The position numbers and the translations under genes are program-made. This document shows, piece after piece, positions 38,543-60,926 of a stretch of 64,000 bases of DNA. Origin of the DNA: Thermoflexales bacterium (GTDB lineage Bacteria; Chloroflexota; Anaerolineae; Fen-1058); contig JBGSPW010000064.1 of NCBI GenBank assembly GCA_041738395.1, positions 1 through 64,000 on the forward strand. Direction: 5' to 3'. Under the pieces are notes generated by a model. It made no database searches, had not been told where the DNA came from, and saw only the letters and a program-made list of their open reading frames with translations. Every line of letters starts with the position of its first letter. Position 1 is the first letter of the stretch.

Positions 38543-39157
38543 TTACTCTGCCTGATCGAGCGAATCGATCGGATGGAAGGAATGCTGGCAAGCCTCGCAG
38601 ATGATCGCGCTGTTGTCGAGTACCGCGCGGTTCACCAAAATCACACGGGCGGGCAAACACAGACAGCAGGCCAGCACGCGATCCCCGGCCGCGGCTTCGC
38701 CGAGGTTCTCGATCAGATCGGCGGCCAGAATCAGGCCGACGTTGTGTTCGATCGCGGTTGCCAGCGGCGCGAACAACGCCTGCCAGCGCTGCTTGGTCTC
38801 GGGCGATAAGGTCCAGTAGCCGCGATCGGTCACGGGATCGTGCGCCAGAATCAAGCCGCACGGCTGCGCATAGGTCGGCGAGTAACGCCCCACCGCGTCA
38901 ACCACCTCCAACAGCATATTCGCCACAATCGTTTCCGCGGCGCGATCGGGCGCGTTGAGATCGGCGCCGTCGAACAATGAAAGCAAATCGGGCAAATCAG
39001 GAATGACGTCATACGCGCGGCACATCGCCAACCAGGCGTGCTGCAGCGCATCGAGCAGATCGATCGACGAATCGGCATCCGAGCGCCCGATCGGCAGATC
39101 ATTCTTCCCCGGCCCCGGGCGCGTGGTGGGCGGGCCGAGGGGTTTATGGGTATACAT
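38543..39157 (-). CDS. Hypothetical protein whose start overlaps the last codons of hdrCB by 14 nt.
   Basis: 204 aa with a C-terminal CEACQHSFHP motif. No confident family. Confidence 0.4.
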   Translation of the reverse strand: MYTHKPLGPPTTRPGPGKNDLPIGRSDADSSIDLLDALQHAWLAMCRAYDVIPDLPDLLSLFDGADLNAPDRAAETIVANMLLEVVDAVGRYSPTYAQPCGLILAHDPVTDRGYWTLSPETKQRWQALFAPLATAIEHNVGLILAADLIENLGEAAAGDRVLACCLCLPARVILVNRAVLDNSAIICEACQHSFHPIDSLDQAE

Positions 39158-40601
39158 CGGTTAATCCCCCTCTGTTGAGGGGATGAGCTTCCCCCCCTTG
39201 TGCGACGGAATAGCTTAACCCCTTCGCTTCCAGCATCGGTCGTGGATCAACCAGGTTCTTGTTCAACGCCGCTTTCTCCGGCACACCCAACGCCAGCGCC
39301 ATCAATTGCGTGAAGTACAACACCGGCAGTGGTTCGGCTAATTTCATCTGGAATTGGCGCGCGTCGAGATTCGAATGGCACATGGGGCACGCGACGGCGA
39401 TTGCATCGGCGCCCGCCTCACGCGCATGCTCGATCAGATCGCTGCTCAACTTCAGCACGATGTCCGGTCGCGTGAGTGAATGAGCCGCGCCGCAACACGA
39501 CGTCTTGTATGACCAATCGCGCACCTCGGCGCCCAGCGCCACCATCAACTGATCCATGTCCGTCGGATTTTCAGGATGCGGCGCTTCGGTGACTTGCGGC
39601 GGACGGGTAAGCAAACAGCCGTAGTAACACACCACGCGCAGGCCCGTCAACGGCTGCTTGACCGCCGCCGCGACCTGCTCTACGCCGATATGCCGGGTGA
39701 TCGATTCGATGAGAGTGGTGACCTGCACCGTGTCGCGGTACTCATAGCCGATCGTCTCACTCACCTCAGCGCGCTGTTCGTCGTTGTGCCGGATTTCGAA
39801 CTGCGCGGCTTTGTGGCGATTGAAGCAGGCCGCGCACGGCATCGTCACTTCCTTGAAGCCGCTCTGCTCGATGAGCGCGAGATTTTCGATCGGCAGGCGC
39901 AGGGCCGCCTCGGGATCGGTGCGATGCGCGGCCGAACTGCCGCAGCACACCCAGCCCCTCGGTTCGATCACGTTCAAGCCCAACGCTTCACACACGGCGC
40001 GCGTGGAGATATCAAATTCAGGCGCGGTGGAATGTAGCGAACAACCGGGATAGTAGGCGACGGCCTCCGTCGCACCGGCGACCGGTTTGGCCCGGTGCGG
40101 CATGCGTGTGGGATGCGGCAGCAAAGAGATTTTATGCTTGCGCAGCATCTTCACGCCCAGGTCCATGTCGCCCAAAATGTTGCGCGTGCGGAGCTTCATC
40201 TCGGCCATCAAGCCCAGTTCATACGCGCGGCCCCACAACTGCACCTCGCGCATGAACGCGACATTGAAGGTATTCACCTCGGGCACTTGCGGCTTGATGC
40301 CACGCGCCCTGGCCTCGCGCGTGAGGAACTCCATAATCGCCGTGATGTCCAATCCTTGTGGACAACGTGTCGTACAAGTCTGGCACGACGCGCACAGCCA
40401 CGGCGTCTGGGAATGCAGCGCCACATCTTCCTGCCCCAGTTGCAAGGCGCGCATCACCTGATTCGGCTGCCAATCGAAGAATTCAGACACAGGGCAGCCA
40501 CTGGTGCACTTCACGCACTGATAACACAGAAAGACATTCTGCCCGGTTTCGTCTTGCACACGTCGCGCAAGCTCAGAATTGACTGGCGTTGCTTCGTCCA
40601 T
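39144..40601 (-). CDS. hdrD: HdrC-HdrB fusion (HdrD/GlpC-like) Fe-S protein with two [4Fe-4S] ferredoxin motifs and two CCG domains.
   Basis: CYQCVKCTSGCP and CASCQTCTTRCP motifs. CCG motifs VCCGSSAAH and SCCGAAHSL. AGGAGG RBS before the ATG at 40601. The upstream Met codons are encoded by the repeat element. Confidence 0.8.
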   Translation of the reverse strand: MDEATPVNSELARRVQDETGQNVFLCYQCVKCTSGCPVSEFFDWQPNQVMRALQLGQEDVALHSQTPWLCASCQTCTTRCPQGLDITAIMEFLTREARARGIKPQVPEVNTFNVAFMREVQLWGRAYELGLMAEMKLRTRNILGDMDLGVKMLRKHKISLLPHPTRMPHRAKPVAGATEAVAYYPGCSLHSTAPEFDISTRAVCEALGLNVIEPRGWVCCGSSAAHRTDPEAALRLPIENLALIEQSGFKEVTMPCAACFNRHKAAQFEIRHNDEQRAEVSETIGYEYRDTVQVTTLIESITRHIGVEQVAAAVKQPLTGLRVVCYYGCLLTRPPQVTEAPHPENPTDMDQLMVALGAEVRDWSYKTSCCGAAHSLTRPDIVLKLSSDLIEHAREAGADAIAVACPMCHSNLDARQFQMKLAEPLPVLYFTQLMALALGVPEKAALNKNLVDPRPMLEAKGLSYSVAQGGEAHPLNRGGLTDVYP

Positions 40602-40623
40602 ATGCGCCTCCTGATTCATCAAC

Positions 40624-40766
40624 GTCATTGCGAGCATCTTTTCGCGAAGCAATCTCAGGCTCGATTAGCGGGGATTGCTTCGTCGCATTCTTCGACTTCG
40701 CTGCGCTCCGCTCACGCCGTATCCGCAAAGCGGCGGCGCGCCGGGCGGAACGCTCCTCGCAATGAC
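40624..40766. repeat. GC-rich nested palindromic element (copy 2) between hdrCB and metF.
   Basis: Perfect 11-bp terminal inverted repeats (gtcattgcgag/ctcgcaatgac). Inner inverted repeat gcgaagcaatc/gattgcttcg. Core shared with 9192-9255. Confidence 0.8.
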
Positions 40767-41787: not shown

Positions 41788-41799
41788 CGATGCCTCCTG

Positions 41800-41872
41800 A
41801 ATTCGGAATGTGGAATGCGGAATACGGAATGCCCCATTCCGAGTTCCAAATTCTGCATTCCGAATTAATCTA
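41800..41872. repeat. Palindromic element built from GGAATG/CATTCC heptamer-like units in the metV-metF spacer.
   Basis: gaattcggaatgtggaatgcggaatacggaatgccccattccgag...cattccgaatt. Confidence 0.8.
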
Positions 41873-42556
41873 TCATTCTTCTTCCGCTGCCAGTCGCAGA
41901 TCAGGCCGAACAATTTTACGCGGGCCGCCGTCACGTGACGTGCGCCAATTCTTGGGCGGCTGGATCTCCAACAGCCGATCAAGCTTGCCCATGTGATCCA
42001 GCCGATCGTAGATGAGCTGCCACGCGCAGGGAATCTCGTCGTTGATCTCGCAGTGCCCGTCTTCCGATCCGCCGCACGGGCCATTGAGCAGCGACTTCGA
42101 GCAGCGCGCGATCGGACAGATGCCGCCCGTCAAACCGAGGATGCAATCGCCGCAGGCCGCGCAGCGCTCCGTCCACACGCCCTGCTCCACCGGCAGGCCG
42201 AGGAACTTGGTGTTGAGGCCGGGCACGATCCAGGCATCGGGAAAATGCTCGGCCAGCGCCTGCACGCCGATGCCGCAGCCCAGCGACAGCACCACGTCGA
42301 CGACGCCCACTTGCTCGGCAATCTCGTCGAGGTATTCCCATTCGCACTGGCGCTGTACGGTCACATCGGTCACGTCCTTGGCGCCGCCGTCGAGTTTGGT
42401 CGCCATGCGCAATGACGCCGCGACAATCGCGGCTTCGCGCGCGCCGCCCGCAAAGCAGACAGTCACACAGGTGCCACAGCCCGCGACCAGCACCTTCTGC
42501 GCGTCGCCGATCAACGTCTTGATTTCTGCTAAGGGTTTCTGTTCGGCTACGATCAT
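41873..42556 (-). CDS. metV: MetV-like protein (MTHFR C-terminal-domain, Cys-rich zinc-binding), the small subunit partner of MetF.
   Basis: Cys clusters CGTCVTVC, CAACGDCILGLTGGICPIARCSKSLLNGPCGG and CEINDEIPC. GGAGAG RBS before the ATG at 42556. Confidence 0.7.
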   Translation of the reverse strand: MIVAEQKPLAEIKTLIGDAQKVLVAGCGTCVTVCFAGGAREAAIVAASLRMATKLDGGAKDVTDVTVQRQCEWEYLDEIAEQVGVVDVVLSLGCGIGVQALAEHFPDAWIVPGLNTKFLGLPVEQGVWTERCAACGDCILGLTGGICPIARCSKSLLNGPCGGSEDGHCEINDEIPCAWQLIYDRLDHMGKLDRLLEIQPPKNWRTSRDGGPRKIVRPDLRLAAEEE

Positions 42557-42630
42557 GGCTCTCTCCATTTCTGAATGTTGATTGCGGATTTCTGATTGCC
42601 GATTGGTCTTCAATCAACAATCAGCATTCA

Positions 42631-43065
42631 TCAATCAGCAATTCGCAGAGGATTTGCTCCCAACGCCTCAATCTTTTCTGTCATTTCCGTTGTCGCCGTC
42701 ACAAACTGATTGGCCATCGCCGACGACAGATTGAACATAGCGACTCGCTCCGGTTCAAGTCCAATCTGCCTGAGCAAGTCCTTCACGTACGCCACTCGGC
42801 GTTTGGCGTTAGCATTACCTTCCAGGTAATGACAGTCGCCGGGCAGTCAACCCGCCACCATGATGCCGTCCGCGCCGTCTTCTATCGCACGGAGTACGGT
42901 CAGCACATCCATCCGGCCTGTGCACGGTATCTGCACGATCTTGATCGCGGGCGGGTATTGCATCCGCAACCCGCCGGCTAGATCGGCGGCCGCGTAGGCG
43001 CAGTGCTCGCAGCAATAGGCGATGATGTTGAGTTGGTTAGCACGTACAGATGCAACGTCGTTCAT
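42631..43065 (-). CDS. mvhD: MvhD-family [2Fe-2S] protein with an in-frame TGA (42847-42849) at the conserved Cys position. Putative selenoprotein.
   Basis: ...PCTGRMDVLTVLRAIEDGADGIMVAG-[TGA]-LPGDCHYLEGNANAKRR... aligns with MvhD consensus GADGVLVAGChxGDCHY. A hairpin (cattaccttccaggtaatg) lies 15 nt downstream of the TGA, at plus 42814-42832. The open frame continues to a TGA stop at 42631. Confidence 0.7.
42814..42832 (-). promoter_or_regulatory. Putative bacterial SECIS hairpin downstream of the mvhD copy-1 UGA.
   Basis: Perfect 7-bp stem CAUUACC/GGUAAUG with a 5-nt loop, starting 15 nt 3' of the UGA. Confidence 0.55.
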
Positions 43066-43155
43066 CTACTTCACCACAGTCATTGCGTTCGCGATGTCTT
43101 CGGCGATCATCTTGTTAAGCTTCTCGTTACTTTGCCAGAACAGTTTCTCCTGAGA

Positions 43156-43932
43156 TCATCTTGAATTGAACAAAGCCATTTCGATATCACATGGCCGAAA
43201 CTTGGACTCGATATTCTCCCCAGCAGCATCAACGTCATTGAAAGTAAGACGCGCGTTGTTTAGCGCTGCTGCCTCTGCCTGCAAAAAGGGAACATATTCC
43301 GTGTAGTACTTATTGATGTTCACGCTTAGATCGCTGATATAGCCATCTTCCGTTCGGAGACTGAGCGTAGTAATACCATTTTTCTGTGTGAAATCATTGA
43401 CGACGTGCTTATCCATGATGCCATAATCATTCGGATACAAGAAACGAAGAAATGCTGTTGCAGTAGGGATTCTCACACCACCAATCCGGAACTTTTTTAG
43501 ACTTGACTCTCTGTATGCGTCAAGCAATTGCACATGTGCATCTTGTGCCCATTTTGCGCGCACATTCTCGACACTGCGTGATGTTCTGGATTTCTGCGAG
43601 GCCATTTTCCAATGCACAATTGCGCAGGTCACGCTCTTTAGGTTGCCAAGACGATCGCCTGTCCATTGACCACTCTCGTTAGCGCGACTACAGTCTTCAA
43701 AGACTGATCGGCTTATTACTTCAAACTTCCGCAAATTGACCCCACGCGGATAGCTCTGAGGAATGGCGGCCGGAAATATACCCGCGAATGTCCCAACATA
43801 CGGCAAGTCGTCAGTTTGAATGACTGTAAATTGCACTTCGCAGTCTCGGTAGTTATAGGCTTGTCTTTGCGCGACGTAACTGTTCAGAGGGATAAGGGTC
43901 ATAGGTATACTCCATCTACATACCCAAGCCAA
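43156..43932 (-). CDS. Hypothetical protein encoded by an AT-rich (about 45% GC) insert between hdrL1 and mvhD. Possible defense or restriction-related protein.
   Basis: GC content drops sharply relative to the 62% flanks. 258 aa with no confident family. The only motif noted is YPNDYGIMDKHVV. Confidence 0.45.
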   Translation of the reverse strand: MAWVCRWSIPMTLIPLNSYVAQRQAYNYRDCEVQFTVIQTDDLPYVGTFAGIFPAAIPQSYPRGVNLRKFEVISRSVFEDCSRANESGQWTGDRLGNLKSVTCAIVHWKMASQKSRTSRSVENVRAKWAQDAHVQLLDAYRESSLKKFRIGGVRIPTATAFLRFLYPNDYGIMDKHVVNDFTQKNGITTLSLRTEDGYISDLSVNINKYYTEYVPFLQAEAAALNNARLTFNDVDAAGENIESKFRPCDIEMALFNSR

Positions 43933-43936
43933 TCTC

Positions 43937-46900
43937 TTATCTGGTAGCTACAGTTTCTTTCACGGGCATGAATCGGCCCGATGGCTCCAACAACGCCTGC
44001 ACCTTCATCACCATCTGCGCATCCGTGTAGTGCATCAACTGAATCGCTTGCGCGGGACATTCGGCCACGCACGAGCCGCAACCCTGGCAGATCGCCGCTT
44101 CGATGTAGGCCGCACCCATAATGCTGCCCACGCCCGTCAAGTTCGCTTTGATCTTCGGCACGCCGAACGGGCAGATGCGCACGCACGTCAAGCAGCCGGT
44201 GCACTTCGCGTCATCCACTACTGCGACACGCCCACCCGCGACTAAAGACTCACGACTCAACACGCGCGCGGCGCGTGCGGCGGCGGCCTGCGCTTGAATC
44301 ATCGTCTCATCCAGCAGCTTCGGATAATGCGCCATACCCGCCATGAACACGCCATCGGATGCAAAATCGACCGGGCGCAGTTTGACGTGCGCTTCGAGGA
44401 AGAAGCCGTCGGCGTCGAGCGCGACTTTGAACAATTTCGCCACCTCGTGCGCATCGTCGCGTGGCACGACGGGCATGGACAGGACGACGAGATCGGGCTG
44501 CAGGGTGATGGTGCGCTGCAAGATGGAATCCCATGCTTGAACGACGATTGGGGAACTCGGAATTTGGAATTCGGAATTCGGATTGTTGATAATCACTTCC
44601 GGTTTATGATTGTCATCGTAGTGGACAAACAACACGCCACGTTCACGCGCGGTGGTATATATCCGTTCTTTGAAGCCATACGTCTGAATGTCTTTGTAGA
44701 GAATGACCACCTGCGCTGCGGGATTGAGTTCTTTGAATTGGATCGCGTTCTTGAGTGCGACGGTGCAGCAAATGCGGCTGCAGTATTTTTCCGCCGGGCC
44801 GACGCATTGGATCATGACGACTGAATGCGGAATGCGGAATGCGGAATGCGGAATGGAAAGCAACGACTCGAATTGCTGTTGAGTGATGATGTTCGGATGA
44901 GTGCCGAATCCATAATCCGGGCCGCGATATTCCTGTGCGCCTGTTGCTAGAATCGTGACGCCGTGCTGTATTTCTTGCATCTTGCATCCTACATCTTGCA
45001 TCTTGCATCCTGCATCTTGCTTCCCGCCTCTTGCATCCTGCGAAGCGTCCCCGTGGGATTGTATCTTGCTGATAAAATTGCCCATGAAGCCCGTCGTCGC
45101 TGCGACCTGGCTGTCGAGATAAACCGTGATGGAAGAGTTGTGCTCAACTTGATCAATCAGTTGCTTCAAGACGATTTGCGGATCTTGGGTCCCCTCTTCC
45201 ATCCCCCTCGCACGCGGGAGGGAAACCAGGACCCGCCGCAGATTGCCGCCGAGTTCATGCGCCTGCTCGACGAGATGAACGGGGAAGCCTTGATCGGCCA
45301 GCGACACAGCCGCGGTCATGCCGGCCGCGCCCCCGCCGACGATCAGGGCAGCGCGCTTCACCGGCACATCGATCAGGTGCTGCGGTTCAAGCAGCGCTGC
45401 GCGCGCCACCGCCATACGCACCAGGTCTTCAGCCTTCGCAGTGGCAACGTCCCAATCATGCGAATGAACCCACGAGCACTGATTGCGGATGTTCGCCATC
45501 TCGAACAGATAGGGATTCAAGCCGGCGTTGCGCAGGCAATCCTGAAACAGCGGCTGATGCGTCAAGGGAGTGCAGCTGGCCACCACCACGCGATTGAGAT
45601 GCTGCTCTTTGATCTGTTCGACGATGTGCTTGATGCTGTCTTGCGAGCACGCATACAAATTTGACTCGGCGTGAACCACGCCCGGCAGCGTCTTCGCATG
45701 GGCGGCAACCTGGGGCACATCGAGGAAGCCTGCGATATTCGAGCCGCAGTGGCACACAAACACGCCGATGCGCGGCTCTTCTTCGCGCACATCTCGCTCC
45801 GCTGGAAATTCCGGGCGCGTGGTCAACGCGAAGCGCGCCGTGCCGAGGCGTGTGGCAGCGGCGGCGGCGGCTCCGCTCGCTTCCACGACCGATTCAGGAA
45901 TATCCTTCGGTTCGCGGAACGGCCCGACGGCGTAGATGCCCGGTCGGCTAGTTTCCAACGGATTGAACTGCACCGTGTGACAGAAACCATATTCGTCGAG
46001 TTCGATCCCCAGGCGTTTGCCCAACGCGCGCACTGATTCGGAAATCTTCATACCGACGGATAACACGACCAGATCAAATTGTTCTTCGACAAGATCGAGT
46101 CCGGCGTCATTGCGAGGAGCGCTTCCTGAGCGGAGCAGAGCGTAGTCGAAGGACAGCGACGAAGCAATCTCCGGCTGTTCGGGACTGAGATTGCTTCGCA
46201 TCCTTCGACTACGCGGCGAACAGATGCCGCTCCACTCAGGACGCTCGCAATGACGGGCATCGGACTGATACCGAACGATCAGATTGTGAGTCTGTGGATT
46301 TTCATGCAGCTCGCTGATGCGACAGCGCGTGTAGTGAATACCGTACCGATCGCGCGCCCGTTCGAAGTAAGACCAGTAGCCCTTGCTGAACGCGCGCATG
46401 TCCATCATGAAGACCTGCACGTCCAGATCAGGTTGATGCTCTTTGGCGATCACTGCTTCTTTGGTCGCATACATGCAGCACACCGCCGAGCAGTAATCGT
46501 GCGTTTGATCGCGCGAGCCGACACATTGCAGGAAGGCAATCCGCTTTGGCGCTGCGCCATCCGATGGACGCCGTACCTGTCCCAGCGTCGGACCGGACGC
46601 CGACAACAACCGCTCGAATTGCAGCGCCGTGACCACGTTCGGATAACGACCGAAGCCATATTCGCGCGACAATGCCGCTTGATACACCTGATAGCCTGGA
46701 GCAAGGATGACAGCGCCGACGTCGATCTTTTCCTCGCGCGCGACCATGTTGTGATCGATCGCATCAACGCCGCAGGCATACACACACGCCAGGCACTCTG
46801 AGCAGATACCGCACTGCAGGCAGCGCTGCGCTTCGGCGCGGGCCTGCTGCTCGGTCAGCCCCAGCACCACCTCGCGGAAGCTGGTCACGCGTTCGGCCAT

Positions 46901-49909: not shown

Positions 49910-51103
49910 CTACGAATCCGTTGCCATCCATTCGCGCCGCCGCATTTCCGGTGTCTGCAAATTGCGCGGAATGATGACCGTGAAGCGTGTGCCTGAACCA
50001 CTTTCATCCGTCGTCACCTTGACGACAATCTGCCCGCTATGCGCATCCATGATTTTTTTGGCGATGGATAAGCCGAGGCCGGTGCCCGGTGTCTCGCCGA
50101 CATTGTCGGCGCGGAAGAAATCTTCAAAGATGTGCGGCAGATCATCGGACGGGATACCGGGGCCTTCGTCGTCGACCTCGAAGGTCAATGAGTCCGGTTC
50201 GTACCGCGCGCGAAAGGTCACCGTACTATCGGGCGGCGCGAACTTGATGGCGTTGTTCAGCAGATTGGTCAAGACCTGCCGCATCCTCCGGCGCGCCCCC
50301 ACGATCGGCTCAAACTTGGGCGGCGGCTCCACCTTGATCCGCACGCCTTTTTCGGCCGCGGCCAAGCGCACATCTTCCAAGGATTCGGTGCCCGCCTCGC
50401 CGGGATCGAACCATTCGAAATCGGCCTGAATCTGCTCCGGGCGCATCCGCGCCAGATCGACCACGTCGCCAATCAGGCCACGCAATTCGACCACGCGCAG
50501 AATGCTGCGCCGCACCATGCGCTGCTGCTTTTCATTCAACTCGCCCGCATAACCGCCGAGGATGGTCTGCAAGTAATTCTCAACGGCGGCCAACGGCCCG
50601 CGCAGTTCGTGCGAGACGATGGACAGAAAATACGTGAGCGTGTCGGTGGCATGCCGATACCGATCGCTGATCAGCGCGGCCTGCCGGTACATCACTTTGA
50701 AGCCCGCTTCGGGATGCGCCCACAGATAAGCGCGCAGCGGCGCACCATCGACCGCGATCACGCGCGCCGGTTCGAGGCACACCGCCGAAGTCGTGTAGGT
50801 ATACGGCGGGGTCAGCGTCGAGAAGCCCGCCATCTCGCCCGGCTCGACGTAGGCGATCGTCGCGTTGCGCGCCGTCGAATGCCGCCCAATCTGGATTTTC
50901 TTTTCCAGCGCCAGTTTGCCCCGTTCGACGATATACATGATCTCGGCCGGTTCGCCTTCCAGCAGCACGGTATCGCCGTCGCGATAAGTCTCTTCGCGGC
51001 AAAACTCCGCAATGGCCGCCAGATCCGTCTCGGAGAGTTCACCGAAAATCTCCGAGCGGCGCAGCCGTTCAGCGGCAATCGACAACGGTGTGACCTTAAG
51101 CAT
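49910..51103 (-). CDS. Sensor histidine kinase with an N-terminal cNMP-binding domain.
   Basis: cNMP-binding-like stretch (IFGELSETDLAAIAEFCREETYRDGDTVLLEGEPAEIMYIVERGKLAL). HisKA H-box (SIVSHELRGPLAA). HATPase motifs (NLLNNAIKF, GTGLGLSIAKKI). Confidence 0.85.
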   Translation of the reverse strand: MLKVTPLSIAAERLRRSEIFGELSETDLAAIAEFCREETYRDGDTVLLEGEPAEIMYIVERGKLALEKKIQIGRHSTARNATIAYVEPGEMAGFSTLTPPYTYTTSAVCLEPARVIAVDGAPLRAYLWAHPEAGFKVMYRQAALISDRYRHATDTLTYFLSIVSHELRGPLAAVENYLQTILGGYAGELNEKQQRMVRRSILRVVELRGLIGDVVDLARMRPEQIQADFEWFDPGEAGTESLEDVRLAAAEKGVRIKVEPPPKFEPIVGARRRMRQVLTNLLNNAIKFAPPDSTVTFRARYEPDSLTFEVDDEGPGIPSDDLPHIFEDFFRADNVGETPGTGLGLSIAKKIMDAHSGQIVVKVTTDESGSGTRFTVIIPRNLQTPEMRRREWMATDS

Positions 51104-51491
51104 GCACGCTCAACAATCTCTCGACGCGACGGAGCAAATCATCCGGTCGGGCCGGTTTCTGGACGTAGTCCTGCACATCCATCGCCATGCCGGTTTCCAA
51201 TTCGTAGCGCCGGCGGCTGGCATCTTCGACGACGGTCGTGAGCACCAGGATCGGCACGGTGGCATAGCGCGGCTCGCTGCGCATCTCGCGGATCACGCCC
51301 CAGCCATCCATACGCGGCATCAACAAATCCAGGATTAAGAGATCCGGCACTTCTTTGGCAACGAGCGCCATGCACTTCTTGCCATCGGGGGCGGTGGCCA
51401 GCCGATAGGGCTGCGATTCCAGGATAGTCGTGATGCCTTCGAGAATGTCGGGGTCATCGTCGACGATCAGAATATACGGTTGATGTTCCAT
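51096..51491 (-). CDS. Single-domain response regulator (REC).
   Basis: ILIVDDDPDILEGI...DLLILDLLMPRMDGWGV. GGAAGG RBS before the ATG at 51491. Confidence 0.85.
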   Translation of the reverse strand: MEHQPYILIVDDDPDILEGITTILESQPYRLATAPDGKKCMALVAKEVPDLLILDLLMPRMDGWGVIREMRSEPRYATVPILVLTTVVEDASRRRYELETGMAMDVQDYVQKPARPDDLLRRVERLLSVHA

Positions 51492-51542
51492 GACTACCCT
51501 TCCTATTCCTGCGCGTACCGTCATTGCGCCGAAGCCATAACG

Positions 51543-51986
51543 TTACTCACTTGCCTTTTCCTGCGCGCCGTTGAGCCTGAGCGGATTGGGACCCAGGCGT
51601 TCAATCTCCGCGGTCAACTCGGCGGCCGACCACGCGAACTGGCCGCCCATCGCCGATGACAGATTGATCATCTGCGCGCGGCGGCCTTCCAGACCGATCT
51701 CTTCCAGCAGCTTTTGCGCGTATTCAATTCGCCGGCGGGCGTTGAGATTACCTTCCAGGTAATGGCAGTCGCCTTCCAGTCAACCCGCCACCAGCACGCC
51801 ATCGGCGCCATCCTCAAAAGCGCGCAGCACATAGAGCACGTCGAGCTTGCCGGTGCACGGCAATTCGATCACCTTAATCGAGGTGGGATACTCCAGTCGC
51901 AGCGCACCGGCCAGATCGGCCGCGGCATACGCGCAGTAACGGCAGCAGAACGCGACAATTTCGGGATTGAAGTGGTCGGACGTCAT
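51543..51986 (-). CDS. mvhD: MvhD-family protein, second copy, with an in-frame TGA (51780-51782) at the conserved Cys position. Putative selenoprotein. Its ATG overlaps the hdrL2 stop codon (ATGA).
   Basis: ...ELPCTGKLDVLYVLRAFEDGADGVLVAG-[TGA]-LEGDCHYLEGNLNARRR... A hairpin (attaccttccaggtaat) lies at plus 51747-51763. Confidence 0.7.
51747..51763 (-). promoter_or_regulatory. Putative SECIS hairpin downstream of the mvhD copy-2 UGA.
   Basis: Same AUUACC-UGGAA-GGUAAU hairpin as in copy 1. It is conserved despite divergence in the flanking codons. Confidence 0.55.
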
Positions 51987-54900: not shown

Positions 54901-56674
54901 ACGGTTCCAGATGTTCGCCCTGCAAATAGCGCAGAATCGATCGGGCCACGGTATGGCCGCTGTTTACCGCCTCGATCACAAACGCGGTGCCCGAGACACT
55001 ATCACCCGCCGCGAACACCCCTTCGCGCGTCGCCGCCAGCGTGTTGGGATTCACCGCAATCAACTTGCGGCCCGTCAAGCCCACGCCCGCATCGTCGGGG
55101 ATAAACGCCAGACCCGCACGCTGGCCTACCGAGAAGATCACGGTATCGCATGCGATGACGTGCGTGGAGTCGGGCACTTTCTCCACGTTGAGACGCCCGG
55201 TCTCGTCGAAGCTAAACGAAGCCACGCGCAGGCACTCGACGCCGCGCACGTGGCCGTGTTCGTCGCTGAGGATGCGTTCAAAGGTGCGGCCCTCATGCCA
55301 GACGATGCCTTCTGCTTGCGCGGCCTGCACTTCCCACGCATGCGCAGGCATCTTGTCGCCGCTCTCGAGACACGCCATCTCGACGTGACGACCCAACCGC
55401 ACGGCGCTGCGGGCGCAATCGATGGCGACGTTGCCGCCGCCGAGCACTAGCACTCGTTTACCCAATCGTGCATCGTACCCGTCGCCTTCTGCCTCCTGCA
55501 TCGTGCTTCCTGCCTCTTGCATCCTGCTTCCTGCATACTTTCCCAGTCGCACATCGCGCAAGAAGTGAGTGTTGATGATCACGCCCTCCAGGTTCGCACC
55601 CGGAATCGGCAGGCGAATACCTTCGTGCGCGCCGACGGCGATCAGCACCGCCTCGAAGCCCGCGTCGAAAATGTCGTCGAGGTTGTCGATGCGATGATTC
55701 AAGCGCAGATCGACGCCAAGGTCGACGATGTCCTGCACTTCGCGCTCGATGATGTTCGTCGGCAAGCGATATTCCGGAACGCCGAGACGCAGCATGCCGC
55801 CGGCCACCGGCATCGCTTCAAACACGGTGACGCCATAGCCCTCGCGCACGAGGTCTTGCGCCGCCGTCAAGCCGCACGGCCCTGCGCCGATAATGGCCAC
55901 GCGCTGATCGAACCGTCGGGGAAGAGGCTCGATCGGTGGGCGCGGCTCCGCGTAGACTTTATCGGTCACAAAGCGCTTGAGGGCGCGGATGTTGATCGGT
56001 TCGTCCACCAGTCCGCGGTTGCAGGCGTCTTCGCAGCGATGATTGCAGATGCGGCCGCAGATGCCGGGAAAGGGATTGTCCATCTTGATGACGCGCAGCG
56101 CATCCTGCCAGCGGCCTTCGCGAATCAACGCGATGTAGCCCTGCGCGCGCTGACTGGCGGGACAGGCATCCCGGCACGGCGCGATGCCGCGCTTCTCGAT
56201 GGCGTACGCATTGGGCACGGCTTGCGGATAGAGTTTGTAGATCGCGTGCCGTGGCGCGAGTGTTTCGTTGAAGGTATCGGGGACGATCACCGGACAGACC
56301 TTGGCGCAGTCGCCACATCCCACGCATTTGCTCAGATCGATGTAACGCGGCTGATGCTGCACACGCGCGACAAAGTCTCCGGCCTGTCCCGCCACATCCC
56401 AGACTTCGGTGTTGGTCATGATCGTGATGTTGGGATGGCCGCCTGTCTCGATGAGACGCGGCGAGATGGTGCACATCGCGCAGTCGTTGGTGGGGAAGGT
56501 CTTGTCGAGCTGCGCCATGTGCCCGCCGATGGCGGACTTGGTTTCGACCAGATACACCTTGAAACCCTGCTCGGCCAGATCGAGCGAGGCCTGCATCCCG
56601 GCAATGCCGCCGCCGACGACCATGACCGCGCCGATGGGTTGTTTATTCGTAGAGGGATCGGTTATCTGAGTCAT
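51983..56674 (-). CDS. hdrL: HdrL-type giant flavoprotein, paralog 2 (1563 aa).
   Basis: Collinear with hdrL1: VVGGGIAGMQASLDLAEQGFKVYLVE, CVGCGDCAKVCP, a GltD-like domain, CLACGICSECMSCTFAC, FLQCVGSRD and C-terminal CTGCLTCVRICP/CQGCGSCASECP. Contains heptamer tracts at 52604-52672, 52898-52931, 53046-53073 and 55484-55545. Confidence 0.8.
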   Translation of the reverse strand: MTQITDPSTNKQPIGAVMVVGGGIAGMQASLDLAEQGFKVYLVETKSAIGGHMAQLDKTFPTNDCAMCTISPRLIETGGHPNITIMTNTEVWDVAGQAGDFVARVQHQPRYIDLSKCVGCGDCAKVCPVIVPDTFNETLAPRHAIYKLYPQAVPNAYAIEKRGIAPCRDACPASQRAQGYIALIREGRWQDALRVIKMDNPFPGICGRICNHRCEDACNRGLVDEPINIRALKRFVTDKVYAEPRPPIEPLPRRFDQRVAIIGAGPCGLTAAQDLVREGYGVTVFEAMPVAGGMLRLGVPEYRLPTNIIEREVQDIVDLGVDLRLNHRIDNLDDIFDAGFEAVLIAVGAHEGIRLPIPGANLEGVIINTHFLRDVRLGKYAGSRMQEAGSTMQEAEGDGYDARLGKRVLVLGGGNVAIDCARSAVRLGRHVEMACLESGDKMPAHAWEVQAAQAEGIVWHEGRTFERILSDEHGHVRGVECLRVASFSFDETGRLNVEKVPDSTHVIACDTVIFSVGQRAGLAFIPDDAGVGLTGRKLIAVNPNTLAATREGVFAAGDSVSGTAFVIEAVNSGHTVARSILRYLQGEHLEPLHHPELPVVKLTHAEIEARIARGEIKRQTRVPLPELPVEQRIDNFVEVEGGYDDQSAQREAARCLACGICSECMSCTFACGTNAIDHNMVAREEKINVGAVILAPGYEVYQAHLSEEYGLGRYPNVVTALQYERMLSASGPTFGHVQRPADGAKPKRIAFLQCVGSRDQSHDYCSSVCCMYAAKEAIMTMEHALAEDRSGSGAGQVTCQVFFMDTRAFSKGYEEYYQRAEKKYGVKYTRCRLSDVKEDPVTRNLRVRYAAPYEGSSQLIEEEFDLVVLSVGMEISESVKRLGRNLGIELDSYGFCHTTLFDPLQTSRAGIYVAGPFREPKDIPESVIEASGAAAAAAQILYPARHTLTRVQEYPAERDVANETSRVGVFVCHCGTNIGGYLDVPAVAEYARSLPGVVHAEDNLYTCSQDTIAHIIDQVKVLGLNRVVVASCTPLTHEPLFQDAIRQAGLNPYLFEMANIRNQCSWVHAGDRDGATVKAEALVRMAAARALRLEPLKTSLVPINKAALIIGGGAAGMTAALTLADQGFPVHLIERAEALGGNLRQLRYFVPLHGDGTALTPQNYLEKIVTKVEQHPLIDVHLNTELIGLGGFKGNFTSKLRDAGGRIQEVGHGVTIVATGGVEYKGKEYKYGQHPGIMTQLEFESFLANPKSEIQNQKSIVMIQCVGPAEKFCSRLCCTTALKNALKIKELNPAADVTIIYRDIRTYGFKERLYTEARRAGVRFIHFDFDHKPEVEIRDQGSVISDRESEFRIPNSKIIIRVHEPVLNRDLELHPDLLVLSTPIVPSPGARSLGTLLKVSMDMDGFFLEVHVKLRPIDFAADGVFMAGMAHYPKFLDETIAQAQAAASRAARLLSQESMLSNARVAVVDPLKCTGCLTCVRICPYDVPKVQSNFTGAGGIIGAAYIEPAICQGCGSCASECPAHAIQLMHYTDAQTMIKIDALFNETSHVSSFIPIEQIEVSR

Positions 56675-56734
56675 AGCGTTTCGATTGTGACAATAAGTAA
56701 CGAATAATGCGTAAAGAATGAATCCATCGCCGAG

Positions 56735-57130
56735 TTATTTGAGGGCAGCGATAACGGCGTCACGCCACGGCAACAGCAGCGCGACGAGCGCGATCACATC
56801 AAACACCGCGCCGACCTTTGCACCGGGTGCGACAGTATTCCACCACGGCATGATGACGATCAACGATACGATGGCTTGCGCAACTGCTAACATCGGCCAC
56901 CAAGTTTGCTGCATCGCCAGTCCAATGCCCGCGCCCACGGAGCAAATCGCTACGATAAGCCACAACAGCCCGAAGATGTGCCCCACTCCGCTGTGCAATG
57001 TGACCCCTGTCGACAACACCCACGGTCTATTCGAGAACCCAGAGGTATTCTTCGTCCATGACGCCATGAACCCGCTCAGGTGAGCGAGACCGTGCATGAT
57101 AAACGCAGCGATAACAATGAAGTGCAGCAT
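56735..57130 (-). CDS. Small integral membrane protein (four TM segments) between mvhD and hdrL2.
   Basis: 131 aa and hydrophobic. Confidence 0.45.
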   Translation of the reverse strand: MLHFIVIAAFIMHGLAHLSGFMASWTKNTSGFSNRPWVLSTGVTLHSGVGHIFGLLWLIVAICSVGAGIGLAMQQTWWPMLAVAQAIVSLIVIMPWWNTVAPGAKVGAVFDVIALVALLLPWRDAVIAALK

Positions 57131-57153
57131 CTCCGCGACTCCTCTTTCGCTTC

Positions 57154-57654
57154 CTATGTGGTGCGCCTTCCGCGAAATCCTTCCTCTTCATCCGTCTCTT
57201 GTTCCGCAGTCCGCATTCCGAATTCCCCGTTTCCTTTCAGCGGATTCGGCCCCAACTCGCGGATGCGCTCCGTCATCGTTTGAGCCGCGTTCGCAAAAAC
57301 CTGCGCCTGACTGCCCGACATGAAGAACATCTCGAGTCGCTCGCCGCCGATGCCGATCTCGTCCAGAATTTTCTTGGCCCGGCGCAAGCGCGCGCGCCCG
57401 CGTTCATTGCCGCGCACATGATGACAGTTGCCGATCGGGCAGGCCACCACATACACGCCATCCGCGCCCTGCTCAAAGGCTTCCAGCAAATAGCGCACAT
57501 CGGTCTTGCCCGTGCACGGCATCCGCACGAACTTCACGTTGGCCGGATACTGAACCTCCAGCGTGCCCGCCGTGTCCGCGGCCATGTATCCGCAGTAGAT
57601 GCAGTAGAAGGCGGTGATTTCAGGCTCGAATGAATGTGTTATTTGAGATGTCAT
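57154..57654 (-). CDS. mvhD: MvhD-family protein, third copy, of the Cys type with no TGA.
   Basis: CTGKTDVRYLLEAFEQGADGVYVVACPIGNCHHVRGNERG. GAGG RBS before the ATG at 57654. Confidence 0.8.
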   Translation of the reverse strand: MTSQITHSFEPEITAFYCIYCGYMAADTAGTLEVQYPANVKFVRMPCTGKTDVRYLLEAFEQGADGVYVVACPIGNCHHVRGNERGRARLRRAKKILDEIGIGGERLEMFFMSGSQAQVFANAAQTMTERIRELGPNPLKGNGEFGMRTAEQETDEEEGFRGRRTT

Positions 57655-57773
57655 ATTCCTCACGGTAACGTGCTGTGTGGTTCGTTCATAACGAGTAATG
57701 AGTAACGAGTAATAGGACCATTGAGCCGGATCACACCGTTGCGATACGACCTTTACTCATTACTTGTTACTCG

Positions 57774-60700
57774 TTACGCCGCCCAACTTCCGAGTCCGCC
57801 AATCGTCTTAAGCATCATCTGCTCATCCGTGTAATTGATCAGCTGAATCGCATTGGCGGGACATTCTCCGGTGCAGGTGCCGCAGCCCTGACACTGCGCC
57901 GGATCGATGTAGGCCGCGCCGCCCAATCCGCCCACGCCCGATCGACCTTCCTGCTGGATGATTTGCGGAATGGCAAAGGGACACGTGCGTGTGCACGTCA
58001 AGCAGCCCACACACTTCTGCGGATCGACCCAGGCCACCACGCCGCCCAGATACAGCGATCCCTGCGAGAGCAGCGTCAACGCGCGCGCCGCCGCCGCCAA
58101 CGCATGGCTGATGCTCTCTTCGACAAACTTCGGATAGTGCGCCATGCCGGCCAGGAAGATGCCCTCGCGCATGAAGTCCATCGGGCGCAGCTTGAGCTGC
58201 GCTTCCTGGAAGAAACCCTCACCCGTTATCGGCACGCGCAGCAGAGCGGCCAACTCCGGTGCGGCTTCGGATGACGCAATCGCCATGCTGAGCGGCACCA
58301 GGTCGGCGGGCAGCGTCAACCAGCGATTCAACGTGAGATCGCGCACGCGCACCACCAACCGATCGCCCTCGGCGGCCCCCAGAAGGGCGACGACGGGCGG
58401 TTCGTCATCGGTAAAGCGGACAAACACGATACCGTGCCGCCGTGCTTCGGTGTAGTATTCTTCACGAAAACCATACGTCACGATGTTCTTGTACAACACG
58501 CTGACGCGGCAAGCGGGGTTAAACAACTTGATGCGGATGGCATTTTTCAGCGCGTTCGTGCAGCACACGCGCGAGCAATACTCAGGCATCCCATCCGGCC
58601 GCACGCACTGAATCATCACCACATCTTTCAACGCCGCGATCTCTTCCGGCCGATGAATGATCTTCTCTTCCAGTTCGTGCTGCGTGATCACATGCGGCAA
58701 ATCCAACAGTGGATGCTCGCGGGTCTCGCGGCCGCCCGTTGCCACGATCGTCACGCCATGCGCGATATGAAATTCGTCGAGGGTGCCGTCGGGATACTTC
58801 ATACGCAGTTCGGCCTGAAAATTGCCCACGTGCCCAATGTGGCGCGTCACTTCGGTGCGCATGTGCACGACGATGCGCCGGTGAGCGCGTACGCGATTCA
58901 CGAGGTCGCGCAACAACCGTTGGGGATCGTAGCCCTCGGCCACGTAGTACAGATTGGCCAGATTCCCGCCCAACATCTCAGTGCGCTCAACCAGATGTAC
59001 ATCGTAACCGCTGTCGGCGATGGCTAACGCAGCCGTCATGCCGCTCACGCCGCCGCCGATGATCAACGCCGCCGGTTGACATTGATTTACATCTTTGTGA
59101 ACAGGTTGTGCCGCCAGCACCCGCCCGACCGCTACCCGCAGCAACTCCTGCGCTTTGCGATTTGCCAACGCCTGCTGCTGTTGATGGACGCGGCTGCACT
59201 GTTCGCGCAGGTTGACCAATTCGAGCAGATAGGGATTGAGTCCCGTCAGGCGCAGGGTGCGCTGGAAGAGCGCTTCATGTGTCCGATTACTGCACGCGGC
59301 AATTACCACACGGTTCAGATTCGCGTCCTGAATGCGCGTCTGAATCTGTGCCAGTGTTTCGGGAAAACACGCGAAGTCGATGGCTTCGGCCAGCACGACA
59401 TTCGGCCACTGCGCCGCGCGCTGCACCAGCGCCGGAAGATTGATCACACCTCCGATCGTCGATCCGCACGAACAGGCGAAGACGCCGACACGCGGCGGCT
59501 CATCCGTCACATCGCGTTCAGGCGGCAGACCATCGGCGGAGAGGAACGGCCACTCGCGGGTGTAGACGTGCGTGCGCAGTTGATCGTTGAGCAGGCGCAT
59601 CACCTCGGCCGCCGCGCCGCTGGCATCGATGATGGTCTCGACGATCTCTTTGGGCGATGAGAACGCGCCGCACACAAACACGCCCGGGCGCGACGTTTGT
59701 AACGGCGTAAATTTATCGGTCTGGCAGAAGCCGTGTTCGTTCAAGTCGATGCCCAACAATTCGGCCAGCAGCGGGGCCGAGTCGGGCGGCTGCAAGCCAG
59801 TCGCCAGCACCACAGTCTCGAAGCGTTCCTCACGCTGCTGTCCCGTGGCATCGGCATAGCGCAAGAGCAAATCGCGCGTGGCGGGATCTTCATGCACGTT
59901 GGAGACGCGGCAGCGCACATAGCGAATGCCATGCTGTTCGCGCGCGGTGGCAAAATACGAGTGATACTCTTTGTTGAAGGCGCGCTCGTCCATGATAAAG
60001 ATGCAGCAATCCACCTCCTCGCCCAGACGTTGCTTGGCGAGGATGGCTTCTTTGGTGGCATACATGCAGCAGATCGACGAACAGAAGGTGTTGGTCTGAT
60101 CGCGCGAGCCGACGCATTGGAGCCAGGCAATCGAGCGGGGTGGCCGCCCATCCGATCGGCGGGTGATAAGTCCCTCGGTCGGACCGGAACGGCTCGCTAA
60201 ACGCTCATACTGCATCGCGTGCAGGACATTGGAGTAACGTCCGTAACCCAGCTCAGCTAAGGGAGTTGGATCATAAACCTGGAAGCCCACCGCCAGAATG
60301 ATCGCGCCAACTTCGACGGTCAACAGACGAGGCTGCTCATCCAGATCGATGGCGTGGCTGGGGCAAATGTCCGCGCACTTTCTGCAGGCGTCGCAATACG
60401 GGCCGCGATCGATCACGTACGCATCGGGGGCCGCGCGCGCCGCAACTTTGTAGGCGGCCTTGCGCATGGTCAGGCGCTGCTGGTATTCGTCCGGCATCTC
60501 GATCGGACAGACTTCGGCACAGCGGCCGCAATCGATGCAGCGCGCCACATCAATGTAACGCGGTTCCTGGCGCAACGAAATCGTGAAATCGCCGGCCTGC
60601 CCTGCCACGTCGATGAGTTGGGTATCGGTCAGAATTTCAATGTTGGGGTGCTGGTTATGCCGACTGTATGCTGGAGATATAGATGGCCGAGTACAGCCAT

Positions 60701-60926
60701 AACCATGATCGGGAGTGCCACGACATAGGACGCAATCGTGTTGGGGGAACATGTAACCGAGTTGGGCCACGCGGCCGCCCAGACAGGGCGTTTGTTCGAC
60801 GAGGTAAACCTTGAGGCCGGCATCAGCCAAATCGAGCGCAGCGCGCATTCCACTGATGCCGCCGCCAATAACCATGACCGCAGCAACCGGCGCTTTGCGA
60901 AGATGCCCTGCTCTAAAAGCGGACAT
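57774..60926 (-). CDS. hdrA: HdrA-like flavoprotein (1050 aa) with two FAD-binding modules and N- and C-terminal ferredoxin motifs.
   Basis: VIGGGISGMRAALDLADAGLKVYLVE. CIDCGRCAEVCP. WLQCVGSRDQ...CSSICCMYATKEA. Second module IIGGGVSGMTAALAIA. C-terminal CVGCLTCTRTCP...CQGCGTCTGECP. Confidence 0.8.
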   Translation of the reverse strand: MSAFRAGHLRKAPVAAVMVIGGGISGMRAALDLADAGLKVYLVEQTPCLGGRVAQLGYMFPQHDCVLCRGTPDHGYGCTRPSISPAYSRHNQHPNIEILTDTQLIDVAGQAGDFTISLRQEPRYIDVARCIDCGRCAEVCPIEMPDEYQQRLTMRKAAYKVAARAAPDAYVIDRGPYCDACRKCADICPSHAIDLDEQPRLLTVEVGAIILAVGFQVYDPTPLAELGYGRYSNVLHAMQYERLASRSGPTEGLITRRSDGRPPRSIAWLQCVGSRDQTNTFCSSICCMYATKEAILAKQRLGEEVDCCIFIMDERAFNKEYHSYFATAREQHGIRYVRCRVSNVHEDPATRDLLLRYADATGQQREERFETVVLATGLQPPDSAPLLAELLGIDLNEHGFCQTDKFTPLQTSRPGVFVCGAFSSPKEIVETIIDASGAAAEVMRLLNDQLRTHVYTREWPFLSADGLPPERDVTDEPPRVGVFACSCGSTIGGVINLPALVQRAAQWPNVVLAEAIDFACFPETLAQIQTRIQDANLNRVVIAACSNRTHEALFQRTLRLTGLNPYLLELVNLREQCSRVHQQQQALANRKAQELLRVAVGRVLAAQPVHKDVNQCQPAALIIGGGVSGMTAALAIADSGYDVHLVERTEMLGGNLANLYYVAEGYDPQRLLRDLVNRVRAHRRIVVHMRTEVTRHIGHVGNFQAELRMKYPDGTLDEFHIAHGVTIVATGGRETREHPLLDLPHVITQHELEEKIIHRPEEIAALKDVVMIQCVRPDGMPEYCSRVCCTNALKNAIRIKLFNPACRVSVLYKNIVTYGFREEYYTEARRHGIVFVRFTDDEPPVVALLGAAEGDRLVVRVRDLTLNRWLTLPADLVPLSMAIASSEAAPELAALLRVPITGEGFFQEAQLKLRPMDFMREGIFLAGMAHYPKFVEESISHALAAAARALTLLSQGSLYLGGVVAWVDPQKCVGCLTCTRTCPFAIPQIIQQEGRSGVGGLGGAAYIDPAQCQGCGTCTGECPANAIQLINYTDEQMMLKTIGGLGSWAA

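Follow-up and report, generated by a model that had tools for sequence, protein, structure and literature searches.

A putative expanded methylene-tetrahydrofolate reductase gene cluster with two giant HdrL paralogs in an Anaerolineae genome

A 64-kb stretch of DNA from a Thermoflexales bacterium (contig JBGSPW010000064.1), referred to here as the window, contains a gene cluster of about 22 kb at 60926..38543 in transcription order, with all genes on the minus strand. With moderate confidence, this region is read as an expanded Anaerolineae cluster for an NADH-linked, probably electron-bifurcating methylene-tetrahydrofolate (methylene-THF) reductase of the Moorella type, provided with alternative HdrA-type modules. 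Judged by domain content, the HdrA subunit of the Moorella-type MetF-MetV-HdrC/B-MvhD enzyme appears to be replaced by a giant protein, HdrL. The likeness to the Moorella complex had been proposed in an earlier note on this DNA. It is strengthened by the related loci, where the order hdrL-mvhD-metV-metF-hdrCB, with MetV after the last HdrL, recurs in 55 of the 61 informative relatives; the six others are doubled clusters truncated at contig ends.

The cluster begins with the gene of a tandem HdrA-like protein, followed by a Cys-type mvhD, a 131-aa open reading frame (ORF), hdrL1, an mvhD with an in-frame TGA, a response regulator, a kinase and a NOV_C-like ORF. It continues with hdrL2, a 258-aa ORF, a second TGA-containing mvhD, metV, metF, a fused hdrCB and a 204-aa Cys-rich ORF (Table 1). 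All genes claimed in the earlier note were recovered in place on the minus strand by domain matches and by reading of the DNA. These include the 1050-aa double-FAD HdrA-like protein with its Cys-type mvhD at the upstream end, and three mvhD genes of which one is of the Cys type and the other two carry an in-frame TGA. Domain searches agree that the giant proteins are HdrA-like with a GltD/NfnB-like insert, and the matches of MetF and MetV to PF02219 and PF12225 confirm these two assignments. Chance is excluded for the gene assignments because of their E-values and the conservation in 80 related loci.

Other details of the earlier description have to be amended. The two giant proteins exist, but they are not tandem neighbors, as an mvhD, the response regulator, the kinase and the NOV_C-like gene stand between them. 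Each is followed by an mvhD, but the inserted 258-aa ORF separates hdrL2 from its own. The genes do share one strand, but start and stop codons overlap at just 3 of 14 junctions: the kinase ORF overlaps the response regulator by 8 nt, the mvhD start (51986) overlaps the hdrL1 stop (ATGA), and the 204-aa ORF overlaps hdrCB by 14 nt. The span holds the expected hdr, mvh and met genes, but its last gene encodes a Cys-rich hypothetical protein and is neither hdr nor mvh. The two-component system, three lineage-specific genes and the in-frame palindromic and heptamer repeats had been missed, and the 131-aa membrane ORF separates the Cys-type mvhD from hdrL1. Both HdrL-linked mvhD genes, each with its in-frame TGA, were missing from the ORF listing, and the hdrCB ORF called from TTG 40652 starts within a repeat element. 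The cluster is flanked by a promoter-like site on one side and a strong terminator on the other. Both are consensus matches only, and the consensus promoter and terminator scans were overall not above the shuffled expectation, which makes the flanking sites weak evidence. The same terminator scan of the window found no strong terminator inside the cluster.

A scan of one genome per species yielded 215 relatives, of which 79 loci were kept; the comparison set is labelled L001-L080, and its loci were annotated using the window proteins. The kept loci are almost all from Chloroflexota metagenome-assembled genomes (MAGs) of fens, groundwater, lakes, sludge and sediments, with a few records labelled as other phyla. 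HdrL1 belongs to a family of more than 120 clusters (at 90% identity) of proteins of about 1515-1620 aa, which are 72-89% identical to it and are labelled Anaerolineae, Anaerolineales, Promineifilaceae or Chloroflexi. The Anaerolineae version of the cluster is widespread, occurring in at least 80 species-level genomes in a single and a double form. The single-HdrL form, (tandem hdrA-mvhD[Cys])-hdrL-mvhD[Sec]-metV-metF-hdrCB, where Sec is selenocysteine, is present in 41 loci. The doubled form, with a two-component system between the HdrL modules, is present in 20 loci and in about seven more that are cut by contig ends, about a third of the set. The best relative is the Anaerolineae bacterium fen_1063 (L002, PMCF01000148), with 93% HdrL1 identity, and a JGI contig (L001, 76% identity) shows the same doubled order. 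The response regulator holds the same position in the double-HdrL relatives with 66-94% identity, and the kinase is conserved alongside. In seven loci (L048, L050, L052, L056, L067, L072 and L079), the slot after the first mvhD is occupied by a different two-component pair, a kinase followed by a response regulator of about 259 aa with an output domain; at least L048 of these has no second HdrL. The tandem hdrA-mvhD pair stands immediately 5′ of HdrL in 33 of the 54 loci with informative upstream sequence, and MetV, MetF and HdrCB are found together in 31 of the 33 loci with sufficient downstream sequence.

The relatives also bear on the metabolic setting of the cluster family. In 23 of them, it is embedded on the same strand in genes of the Wood-Ljungdahl pathway, in the order acsD-acsC-RACo-acsE-(malic enzyme)-(TrxR-like)-[cluster]-DUF3786-cooC-cooC, with fhs nearby. 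Such embedding in acs genes strongly ties the HdrL cluster family to this pathway.

Between the giant proteins HdrL1 and HdrL2, the identity is 56% by BLASTP (60% over conserved alignment columns), and HdrL1 is 47% identical to the 1050-aa tandem HdrA outside an insert of about 490 aa. Both match the Methanothermococcus HdrA of structure 5odc (E=5e-178) in four stretches, which in HdrL1 are residues 17-162, 661-888, 963-1135 and 1385-1547, aligned to HdrA 146-291, 293-510, 2-174 and 496-653, respectively. The region between the first two stretches, at about 160-670, resembles NfnB/GltD: a search with the insert alone returned 4ylf_B (6e-69) and 5jca_L (2e-65), as well as 9bov, 9n5u and 8oh5, and the family matches include PRK12771 (493 bits) and the gltA family (297 bits). 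Residues 17-162 and 661 to about 950 therefore form a first module like thioredoxin reductase (TrxR), whose inserted ferredoxin domain is split by the NfnB/GltD-like module. The latter is composed of a Fer4_20 two-cluster domain with two [4Fe-4S] clusters and of FAD and NAD(P)H Rossmann domains. Residues 963-1547 provide the N-terminal domain, a second TrxR-like module and the C-terminal two-cluster ferredoxin domain.

The two modules of HdrL1 are complementary. Module 1 carries C65 and C68 in FPTNDCAMC, the motif of HdrA Cys194/Cys197, and has no N-terminal domain; in module 2 (963-1135), the N-terminal domain is present and the Cys194/Cys197 motif is absent. The tandem HdrA is built in the same way, with a module 1 that has FxxxDCxxC and no N-terminal domain and a module 2 with the N-terminal and the C-terminal ferredoxin domains. 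By this distribution of motifs, each HdrL is a single-chain pseudo-dimer mimicking an asymmetric HdrA dimer. For cofactors, an HdrL offers three FAD-binding GxGxxG motifs and a single NAD(P)H site. Alignment of 99 HdrL sequences shows 41 conserved Cys, all of which are kept in HdrL1 and HdrL2; this number is enough for about nine [4Fe-4S] clusters.

The MvhD proteins are divided in a strict manner: those following HdrL are mostly Sec-containing, and those following the tandem HdrA contain Cys. In both HdrL-linked mvhD genes of the window, the TGA stands in place of the Cys in '...VAG[C]xxGxCH...'. Across the related loci, 82 HdrL-linked mvhD genes carry TGA and 10 a Cys codon, and all 45 that follow the tandem HdrA encode Cys. 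The Cys-type MvhD of the window has the motif VVAC-PIGNCHHVRGNE and ends in a tail that originated from heptamer repeats. Among methanococcal proteins, VhuD contains selenocysteine. The Sec position of the window MvhD coincides with a non-standard residue 'X' in PDB 9sfi_K.

A short hairpin lies just downstream of each TGA. It is identical, bar the fifth base of the loop, in 80 of 81 distinct TGA-type genes, synonymous sites included. Its codons CAT, TAC, GGT and AAT are invariant in all 81 and CTG in 80, and the single exception to CTG keeps the stem with a different loop. Nearby conserved Gly, Cys and Ala codons of the same genes vary at synonymous sites, and the contrast of invariant hairpin codons with freely varying neighbors indicates a constraint at the RNA level. 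In nine of the ten Cys-type homologs, the motif is lost (CHYQLGN, CHFQQGN and similar). The hairpin is read as a bacterial selenocysteine insertion sequence (SECIS) element, and both HdrL-linked MvhD proteins as predicted selenoproteins; an Rfam search of the window matched no SECIS family and gave only two tRNAs. In L002 (PMCF01000148, 6356), the first HdrL-linked mvhD has TGT (Cys) yet retains the SECIS-like hairpin intact, suggesting that Sec gave way to Cys very recently.

The reductase core follows the second Sec-type mvhD, which lies directly upstream of the adjacent metV and metF. MetV is 65-96% identical in nearly all relatives, with one outlier at 56% (L075), and no solved structure related to it was found; MetF matches only canonical methylene-THF reductase structures, distantly. 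The fused HdrCB consists of one 2x[4Fe-4S] domain and two CCG domains, and both CCG...CxxC motifs are intact. The 204-aa Cys-rich protein behind it has only 29 database clusters and gave no family or fold match; a homolog stands directly after hdrCB in nine relatives.

A mechanism can be proposed by homology to two systems, the methanogen complex of structure 5odc and the reductase of Moorella (PMC5861303, PMC8578096), from which we infer the formation of a complex, its use of NADH and the bifurcation. NADH would be oxidised at the NfnB-like flavin of HdrL, and the electrons would travel through the two [4Fe-4S] clusters of the NfnB-like module and the split inserted ferredoxin domain to the HdrA flavin or flavins. 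One route may then lead through the [2Fe-2S] cluster of the Sec-containing MvhD to MetV and the MetF flavin, where methylene-THF would be converted to methyl-THF. In the other, HdrCB or the (C-terminal) ferredoxin domains may pass electrons to a second partner, in flavin-based bifurcation or its reverse. Three alternative input modules, the tandem HdrA with Cys-MvhD, HdrL1 with Sec-MvhD and HdrL2 with Sec-MvhD, would share one MetVF-HdrCB core, and the choice among them is probably under the control of the embedded response regulator and cyclic nucleotide (cNMP)-domain kinase. Participation of all three modules in a single multi-module enzyme, as the earlier note suggested, is no more than inferred.

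The nucleotide site gives an indication of the electron donor. The NADPH enzymes 4ylf, 5jca and 9bov read '...V(Y)RR...' after strand beta2, and this YRR fingerprint of NADPH-dependent NfnB/GltD is found in neither HdrL1 nor HdrL2. Among first or single HdrLs, 71 of 78 read 'ACLE' (CLE), as does HdrL1 of the window, with the Glu at the classical NAD fingerprint distance from GxGxxA. HdrL2 reads 'LVLDRPR', with an Asp at the same distance, and belongs to a clade of 13 second copies. Both window paralogs look NADH-type, because Glu or Asp stands where NADPH enzymes have Arg-Arg, and this would accord with the NADH dependence of the Moorella enzyme. A division of the two paralogs into an NADH- and an NADPH-specific one was considered and dropped, since the fingerprint position is acidic in both. 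It stands just for 8 of 21 double-HdrL relatives (L024, L027, L028, L036, L038, L041, L046 and L061), in which the second copy keeps the canonical NADPH motif 'YRR' and the first has 'CLE', and these eight second copies form two groups outside the HdrL2 clade of the window.

Such a pattern points to a repeated diversification of nucleotide specificity in the second copies. This suggests, in turn, that the duplication provides alternative electron donors or acceptors under the control of the embedded regulators. Tentatively, and with a rather low probability, the doubled cluster may be pictured as a regulated dual-input redox hub, in which a cNMP-sensing two-component system switches between HdrL paralogs with diverged nucleotide sites. 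If so, the methylene-THF step could be driven by, or could feed, NADH or NADPH, the HdrL pair might act as a transhydrogenase of the Nfn/Stn kind coupled to one-carbon (C1) reduction, and the selenium-dependent MvhD would be the obligatory connector.

Several points weigh against the reading of the region as an NADH-linked, bifurcating reductase with alternative modules. Bifurcation was never demonstrated even for the Moorella complex, whose second acceptor is not identified (PMC8578096), and the NADH preference of HdrL rests on a sequence fingerprint. The stoichiometry is odd, with a single HdrCB for three HdrA-type proteins. The operon is interrupted by three foreign genes and several repeats, which make co-transcription uncertain. 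The scores of the three large proteins stay below the NCBIfam equivalog cut-offs, with 896, 886 and 788 bits for NF040770 (cut-off 1100) and 672, 666 and 625 bits for NF041778 (cut-off 1400), and the best NCBIfam match of the tandem HdrA, HdrA2, reaches 788 bits, under the cut-off of 1100. These proteins are HdrA-like and not orthologs of the methanogen enzyme. Of the 54 informative relatives, 21 (about 40%) lack the tandem hdrA with its Cys-mvhD, and positions 1-1450 of L002 hold mere remnants of a deleted pair, which together indicate that the pair is dispensable and may serve another function. Within the 64-kb window, neither selA/B/C/D nor tRNA-Sec (searched with ARAGORN) was found, nor were other Wood-Ljungdahl genes, and the closest relatives L001 and L002 are also without acs neighbors.

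The missing acs genes leave an appreciable, if minor, probability that the enzyme works mainly in the oxidative direction. It would then convert methyl-THF to methylene-THF and confurcate the electrons of ferredoxin and methyl-THF onto NAD+, in methyl or acetate oxidation or just in methionine-related C1 metabolism, and not in the fixation of CO2 by acetogenesis. The oxidation of methyl-THF with NAD+ is endergonic and needs such a coupling (E0′ of about -200 mV versus -320 mV; PMC5861303), the source lineage includes fen MAGs (L002), and in the window and its closest relatives the cluster stands among sugar, amine and transport genes. However, the acsCDE/RACo/cooC/fhs context of the 23 relatives fits either direction of the pathway, and the sequence holds nothing that fixes the direction of the reaction.

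Rather unlikely is a co-location of separate enzymes, in which only the HdrL beside mvhD-metVF-hdrCB forms a reductase and the other two units are independent NADH/ferredoxin/thiol oxidoreductases. The frequent absence of the tandem pair agrees with this, as do the regulators and inserted genes that stand between the modules in the window. Moreover, the HdrL-MvhD pairs of Desulfobacterium autotrophicum and Syntrophobacter fumaroxidans adjoin dsr or hdrABC, not metF (PMC2702500, PMC5947623). Nevertheless, where relatives have a single HdrL, the one directly before mvhD-metVF is of the HdrL1 type, which makes HdrL1 a bona fide MetVF partner, and the order of the modules is conserved on one strand, uninterrupted by a strong terminator.

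Still less probable is a non-bifurcating, NADH-dependent methylene-THF reductase in which the part of HdrL is just that of a diaphorase or an electron wire, comparable to RnfC2 of Acetobacterium woodii, and HdrCB and the extra ferredoxin domains are structural or vestigial. The complex of Moorella can oxidise NADH and reduce methylene-THF via dyes only, with no ferredoxin reduced and no second acceptor found (PMC8578096, PMC5861303), and HdrL carries its own NAD(P)H module. A simple wire, however, hardly explains why all 41 Cys, both CCG domains and the three flavin sites are strictly conserved across 99 homologs, and flavins of the NfnB and HdrA types are bifurcating sites in all characterised relatives (PMC5861303).

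The preferred reading of a Moorella-type, probably bifurcating reductase can be compared with several known systems. The Moorella MetFV-HdrABC-MvhD complex of Mock et al. (2014; reviewed in PMC5861303 and PMC8578096) shares with it MetF, MetV, MvhD, an HdrA-type flavoprotein and HdrB/C with CCG domains, and Moth_1193-1191 have the same mvhD-metV-metF order. In Moorella the electron donor is NADH, and the HdrA subunit binds two FAD and acts as a diaphorase (PMC5861303, PMC8578096); the pyridine-nucleotide site is on the HdrA-type subunit, as in HdrL, and the relatives' cluster is likewise linked to the Wood-Ljungdahl pathway. In contrast to the Moorella HdrA, which was compared by description, the HdrA-type subunit here is about 1550 aa long and combines a tandem HdrA with an NfnB-like insert. 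Further differences are the two HdrL paralogs with an insert-less tandem HdrA, the fusion of HdrC and HdrB, the three MvhD proteins (two with Sec) and the embedded two-component system.

Sewell et al. (2017, PMC5736913) described an hdrABC-mvhD-metVF cluster in the marine Anaerolineae single cells and MAGs DscP3, An-B22 and SM23_63. It belongs to the same class of bacteria, is of the Moorella type, and has a fused hdrCB and two-component genes flanking metF. The available part of that report calls the cluster unique to marine members and makes no mention of a giant HdrL, a duplication or a Sec-MvhD, whereas the present set comprises 80 species-level genomes, including those from fens, groundwater, lakes and sludge. 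The pairing of HdrL with a Sec-MvhD goes back to D. autotrophicum HRM2, where Strittmatter et al. (2009, PMC2702500) defined it, and it also occurs in S. fumaroxidans; a role in NADH oxidation was proposed for both (PMC2702500, PMC5947623). As far as the comparison by description allows, these proteins are likewise large fusions of HdrA- and glutamate-synthase-like parts with an NADH-binding site and a selenoprotein MvhD encoded next to them. Their linkage is to dsr/hdrABC and sulfate reduction and not to metVF, and selenocysteine occurs in two of the three HdrLs of Desulfobacterium, in contrast to the HdrL proteins here, which have Cys throughout.

Chadwick et al. (2022, PMC9012536) read the fused HdrA of anaerobic methanotrophic archaea (ANME) as a single-chain heterodimer with complementary N-terminal domain and Cys197, and found in HdrA9-11 of ANME-1 an NfnB insert of about 500 aa in the same inserted ferredoxin domain. 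HdrL shares the complementarity with the HdrA3/4-type fusion. In ANME, however, the two features are in different proteins and the fusion order is reversed, with the N-terminal-domain module first; HdrL combines both, is linked to MetVF and is bacterial. The methanogen complexes MvhAGD-HdrABC and FdhAB-HdrABC (5odc, 7bkb, 8rvu, 9sfi) are the best structural templates for HdrA and MvhD (E=2e-40 for MvhD), but here there is no hydrogenase or formate dehydrogenase partner and a fused pseudo-dimer stands in place of a homodimer.

The building blocks, namely HdrL, the Anaerolineae hdrABC-mvhD-metVF cluster and the fused and the NfnB-inserted HdrA, are thus already known. In the literature searched, no description was found of both HdrA modifications in one MetVF-linked protein, of an HdrL duplication alongside an insert-less third paralog, of the strict Sec/Cys partition between MvhD types or of the breadth across non-marine Chloroflexota, and no solved structure covers such a MetV-containing complex. 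The energy conservation and the second electron partner of reductases of the MetFV-HdrABC-MvhD type have been a standing question since 2014, and whether many acetogens and acetate oxidisers can exist at the thermodynamic limit depends on the methylene-THF reductase step. A natural single-chain, asymmetric HdrA with diverged nucleotide sites offers a set of variants for structural and biochemical work. The cluster also provides a clear marker when C1 metabolism is to be annotated in this abundant and mostly uncultured class. Current annotations name the giants 'FAD-dependent oxidoreductase' and split the selenoprotein MvhD in two; the gene caller of L001, for example, breaks each Sec-MvhD into fragments of 68 and 58 aa.

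Table 1. Features of the cluster and its borders, with positions in the window
Feature	Position	Strand	Remarks
Promoter-like site TTGACT-18-TATAAT	60996..61025	-	about 70 nt upstream of tandem hdrA; 11/12 consensus matches
Tandem HdrA-like flavoprotein, 1050 aa, no NfnB insert	57774..60926	-	two FAD modules and ferredoxin domains
Cys-type MvhD (FlpD), 169 aa	57154..57663	-	PF02662, E=2e-42
Hydrophobic/membrane ORF, 131 aa	56735..57130	-	lineage-specific insertion, matches no family
HdrL1, 1563 aa	51983..56674	-	single-chain pseudo-dimeric HdrA with NfnB/GltD-like module
mvhD with in-frame TGA (codon 51782-51780), predicted selenoprotein, 147 aa	51543..51986	-	
SECIS-like hairpin of the first Sec-mvhD	51747..51764	-	CAUUACC-UGGAA-GGUAAU, 15 nt past UGA
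Receiver-only response regulator, 142 aa	51096..51524	-	PF00072
Soluble histidine kinase with N-terminal cNMP-binding domain, 397 aa	49910..51103	-	PF00027, PF00512, PF02518
NOV_C/DUF3883-like ORF, 298 aa	48787..49683	-	PF13020, E=1e-11; GC 0.52
HdrL2, 1595 aa	43937..48724	-	HdrL1 paralog, same architecture, in-frame repeat insertions
Palindromic element like a miniature inverted-repeat transposable element (MITE), about 149 nt, in hdrL2	46106..46254	.	terminal repeats GTCATTGCGAG / CTCGCAATGAC
ORF of no known family, 258 aa	43156..43932	-	low-GC insertion at the hdrL2/mvhD junction
Second mvhD with in-frame TGA (codon 42849-42847), predicted selenoprotein, 144 aa	42631..43065	-	
SECIS-like hairpin of the second Sec-mvhD	42814-42831		
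MetV, Fe-S subunit of MetFV-type methylene-THF reductase, 227 aa	41873..42556	-	PF12225, E=2.5e-38
MetF, catalytic subunit of methylene-THF reductase, 336 aa	40777..41787	-	PF02219, E=1e-34
MITE-like element, second copy, in the metF-hdrCB spacer	40624..40766	.	
Fused HdrC-HdrB, about 485 aa	39144..40601	-	PF13534 and twice PF02754
Cys-rich hypothetical protein, 204 aa	38543..39157	-	four invariant C-terminal Cys, CxC...CxxC
Terminator-like hairpin, 17-bp stem and T run	38466..38503	-	40 nt past the last gene
Heptamer arrays (examples)	44823-44855, 44973-45041, 52607-52667, 52897-52930, 55484-55534, 57689-57777		

Three ORFs are inserted in the cluster, the 131-aa membrane ORF, the 298-aa NOV_C/DUF3883-like ORF and the 258-aa orphan, and two of them are in low-GC stretches (0.52-0.54 versus about 0.59). 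No homolog of the 131-aa ORF was found in L001-L080, and L001 has a PIN toxin-antitoxin pair at its spot. The NOV_C-like ORF, which has a weak PADLOC match to the HmaA C-terminus, is absent from L001 and L002 at the same junction. In place of the 258-aa ORF, L002 has just 29 nt and L001 a DUF3303 gene; like the 131-aa ORF, it matched no family.

The cluster also contains repeats of two kinds. The palindromic element is about 145-149 nt long, with terminal inverted repeats and a DNA fold of z=-9.7. Its copy in hdrL2 is in frame, lengthens the protein by about 45 aa and is not present in the L002 ortholog, which is 92% identical, and a degenerate third copy lies near 49852. Such an in-frame insertion resembles that of the Rickettsia palindromic elements. 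Heptamer tandem repeats of 3-10 copies form about 20 arrays in the window, of which 16 are in the cluster (41799-57777), many of them in frame in hdrL1 and hdrL2. In the related loci, a period of 7 is by far the commonest among tandem repeats, with 263 arrays. About 120 of these are inside HdrL ORFs, in about six recurrent loops, and the heptamer units differ by genome and by paralog. Adjacent arrays are often inverted, as reverse complements, and would form hairpins. That the window copy is decaying and non-functional, which the three lineage-specific ORFs, the two to three palindromic elements (one of them in hdrL2) and the 16 period-7 arrays might suggest, is very improbable because all core ORFs and cofactor ligands are intact, with the insertions in frame and in loops that vary in the relatives too, and with the 41 conserved Cys and the SECIS hairpins retained.

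One flank of the cluster holds genes for a TetR regulator and a class II aldolase, the other a PotA-like ABC transporter, and the rest of the window contains F420 biosynthesis genes, MutS, peptidases and similar. A giant ORF of 2594 aa at 41-7825, possibly longer as it starts near the window edge, has 5′-nucleotidase/metallophosphatase, SBP_bac_5, collagen-like and Calx-beta domains and an 18/72-nt tandem repeat at 4660-4879. An intergenic direct repeat of 105 nt is present at 18968-19167 in 1.9 copies that are 86% identical. An IS1595-family transposase gene at 29168-29860 adjoins tRNA-Gly and tRNA-Pro (30258-30410). Finally, a 477-aa protein encoded at 22933-24366 has a weak match to the major-vault-protein shoulder (PF11978, E=3e-6), which is unusual for a bacterium.

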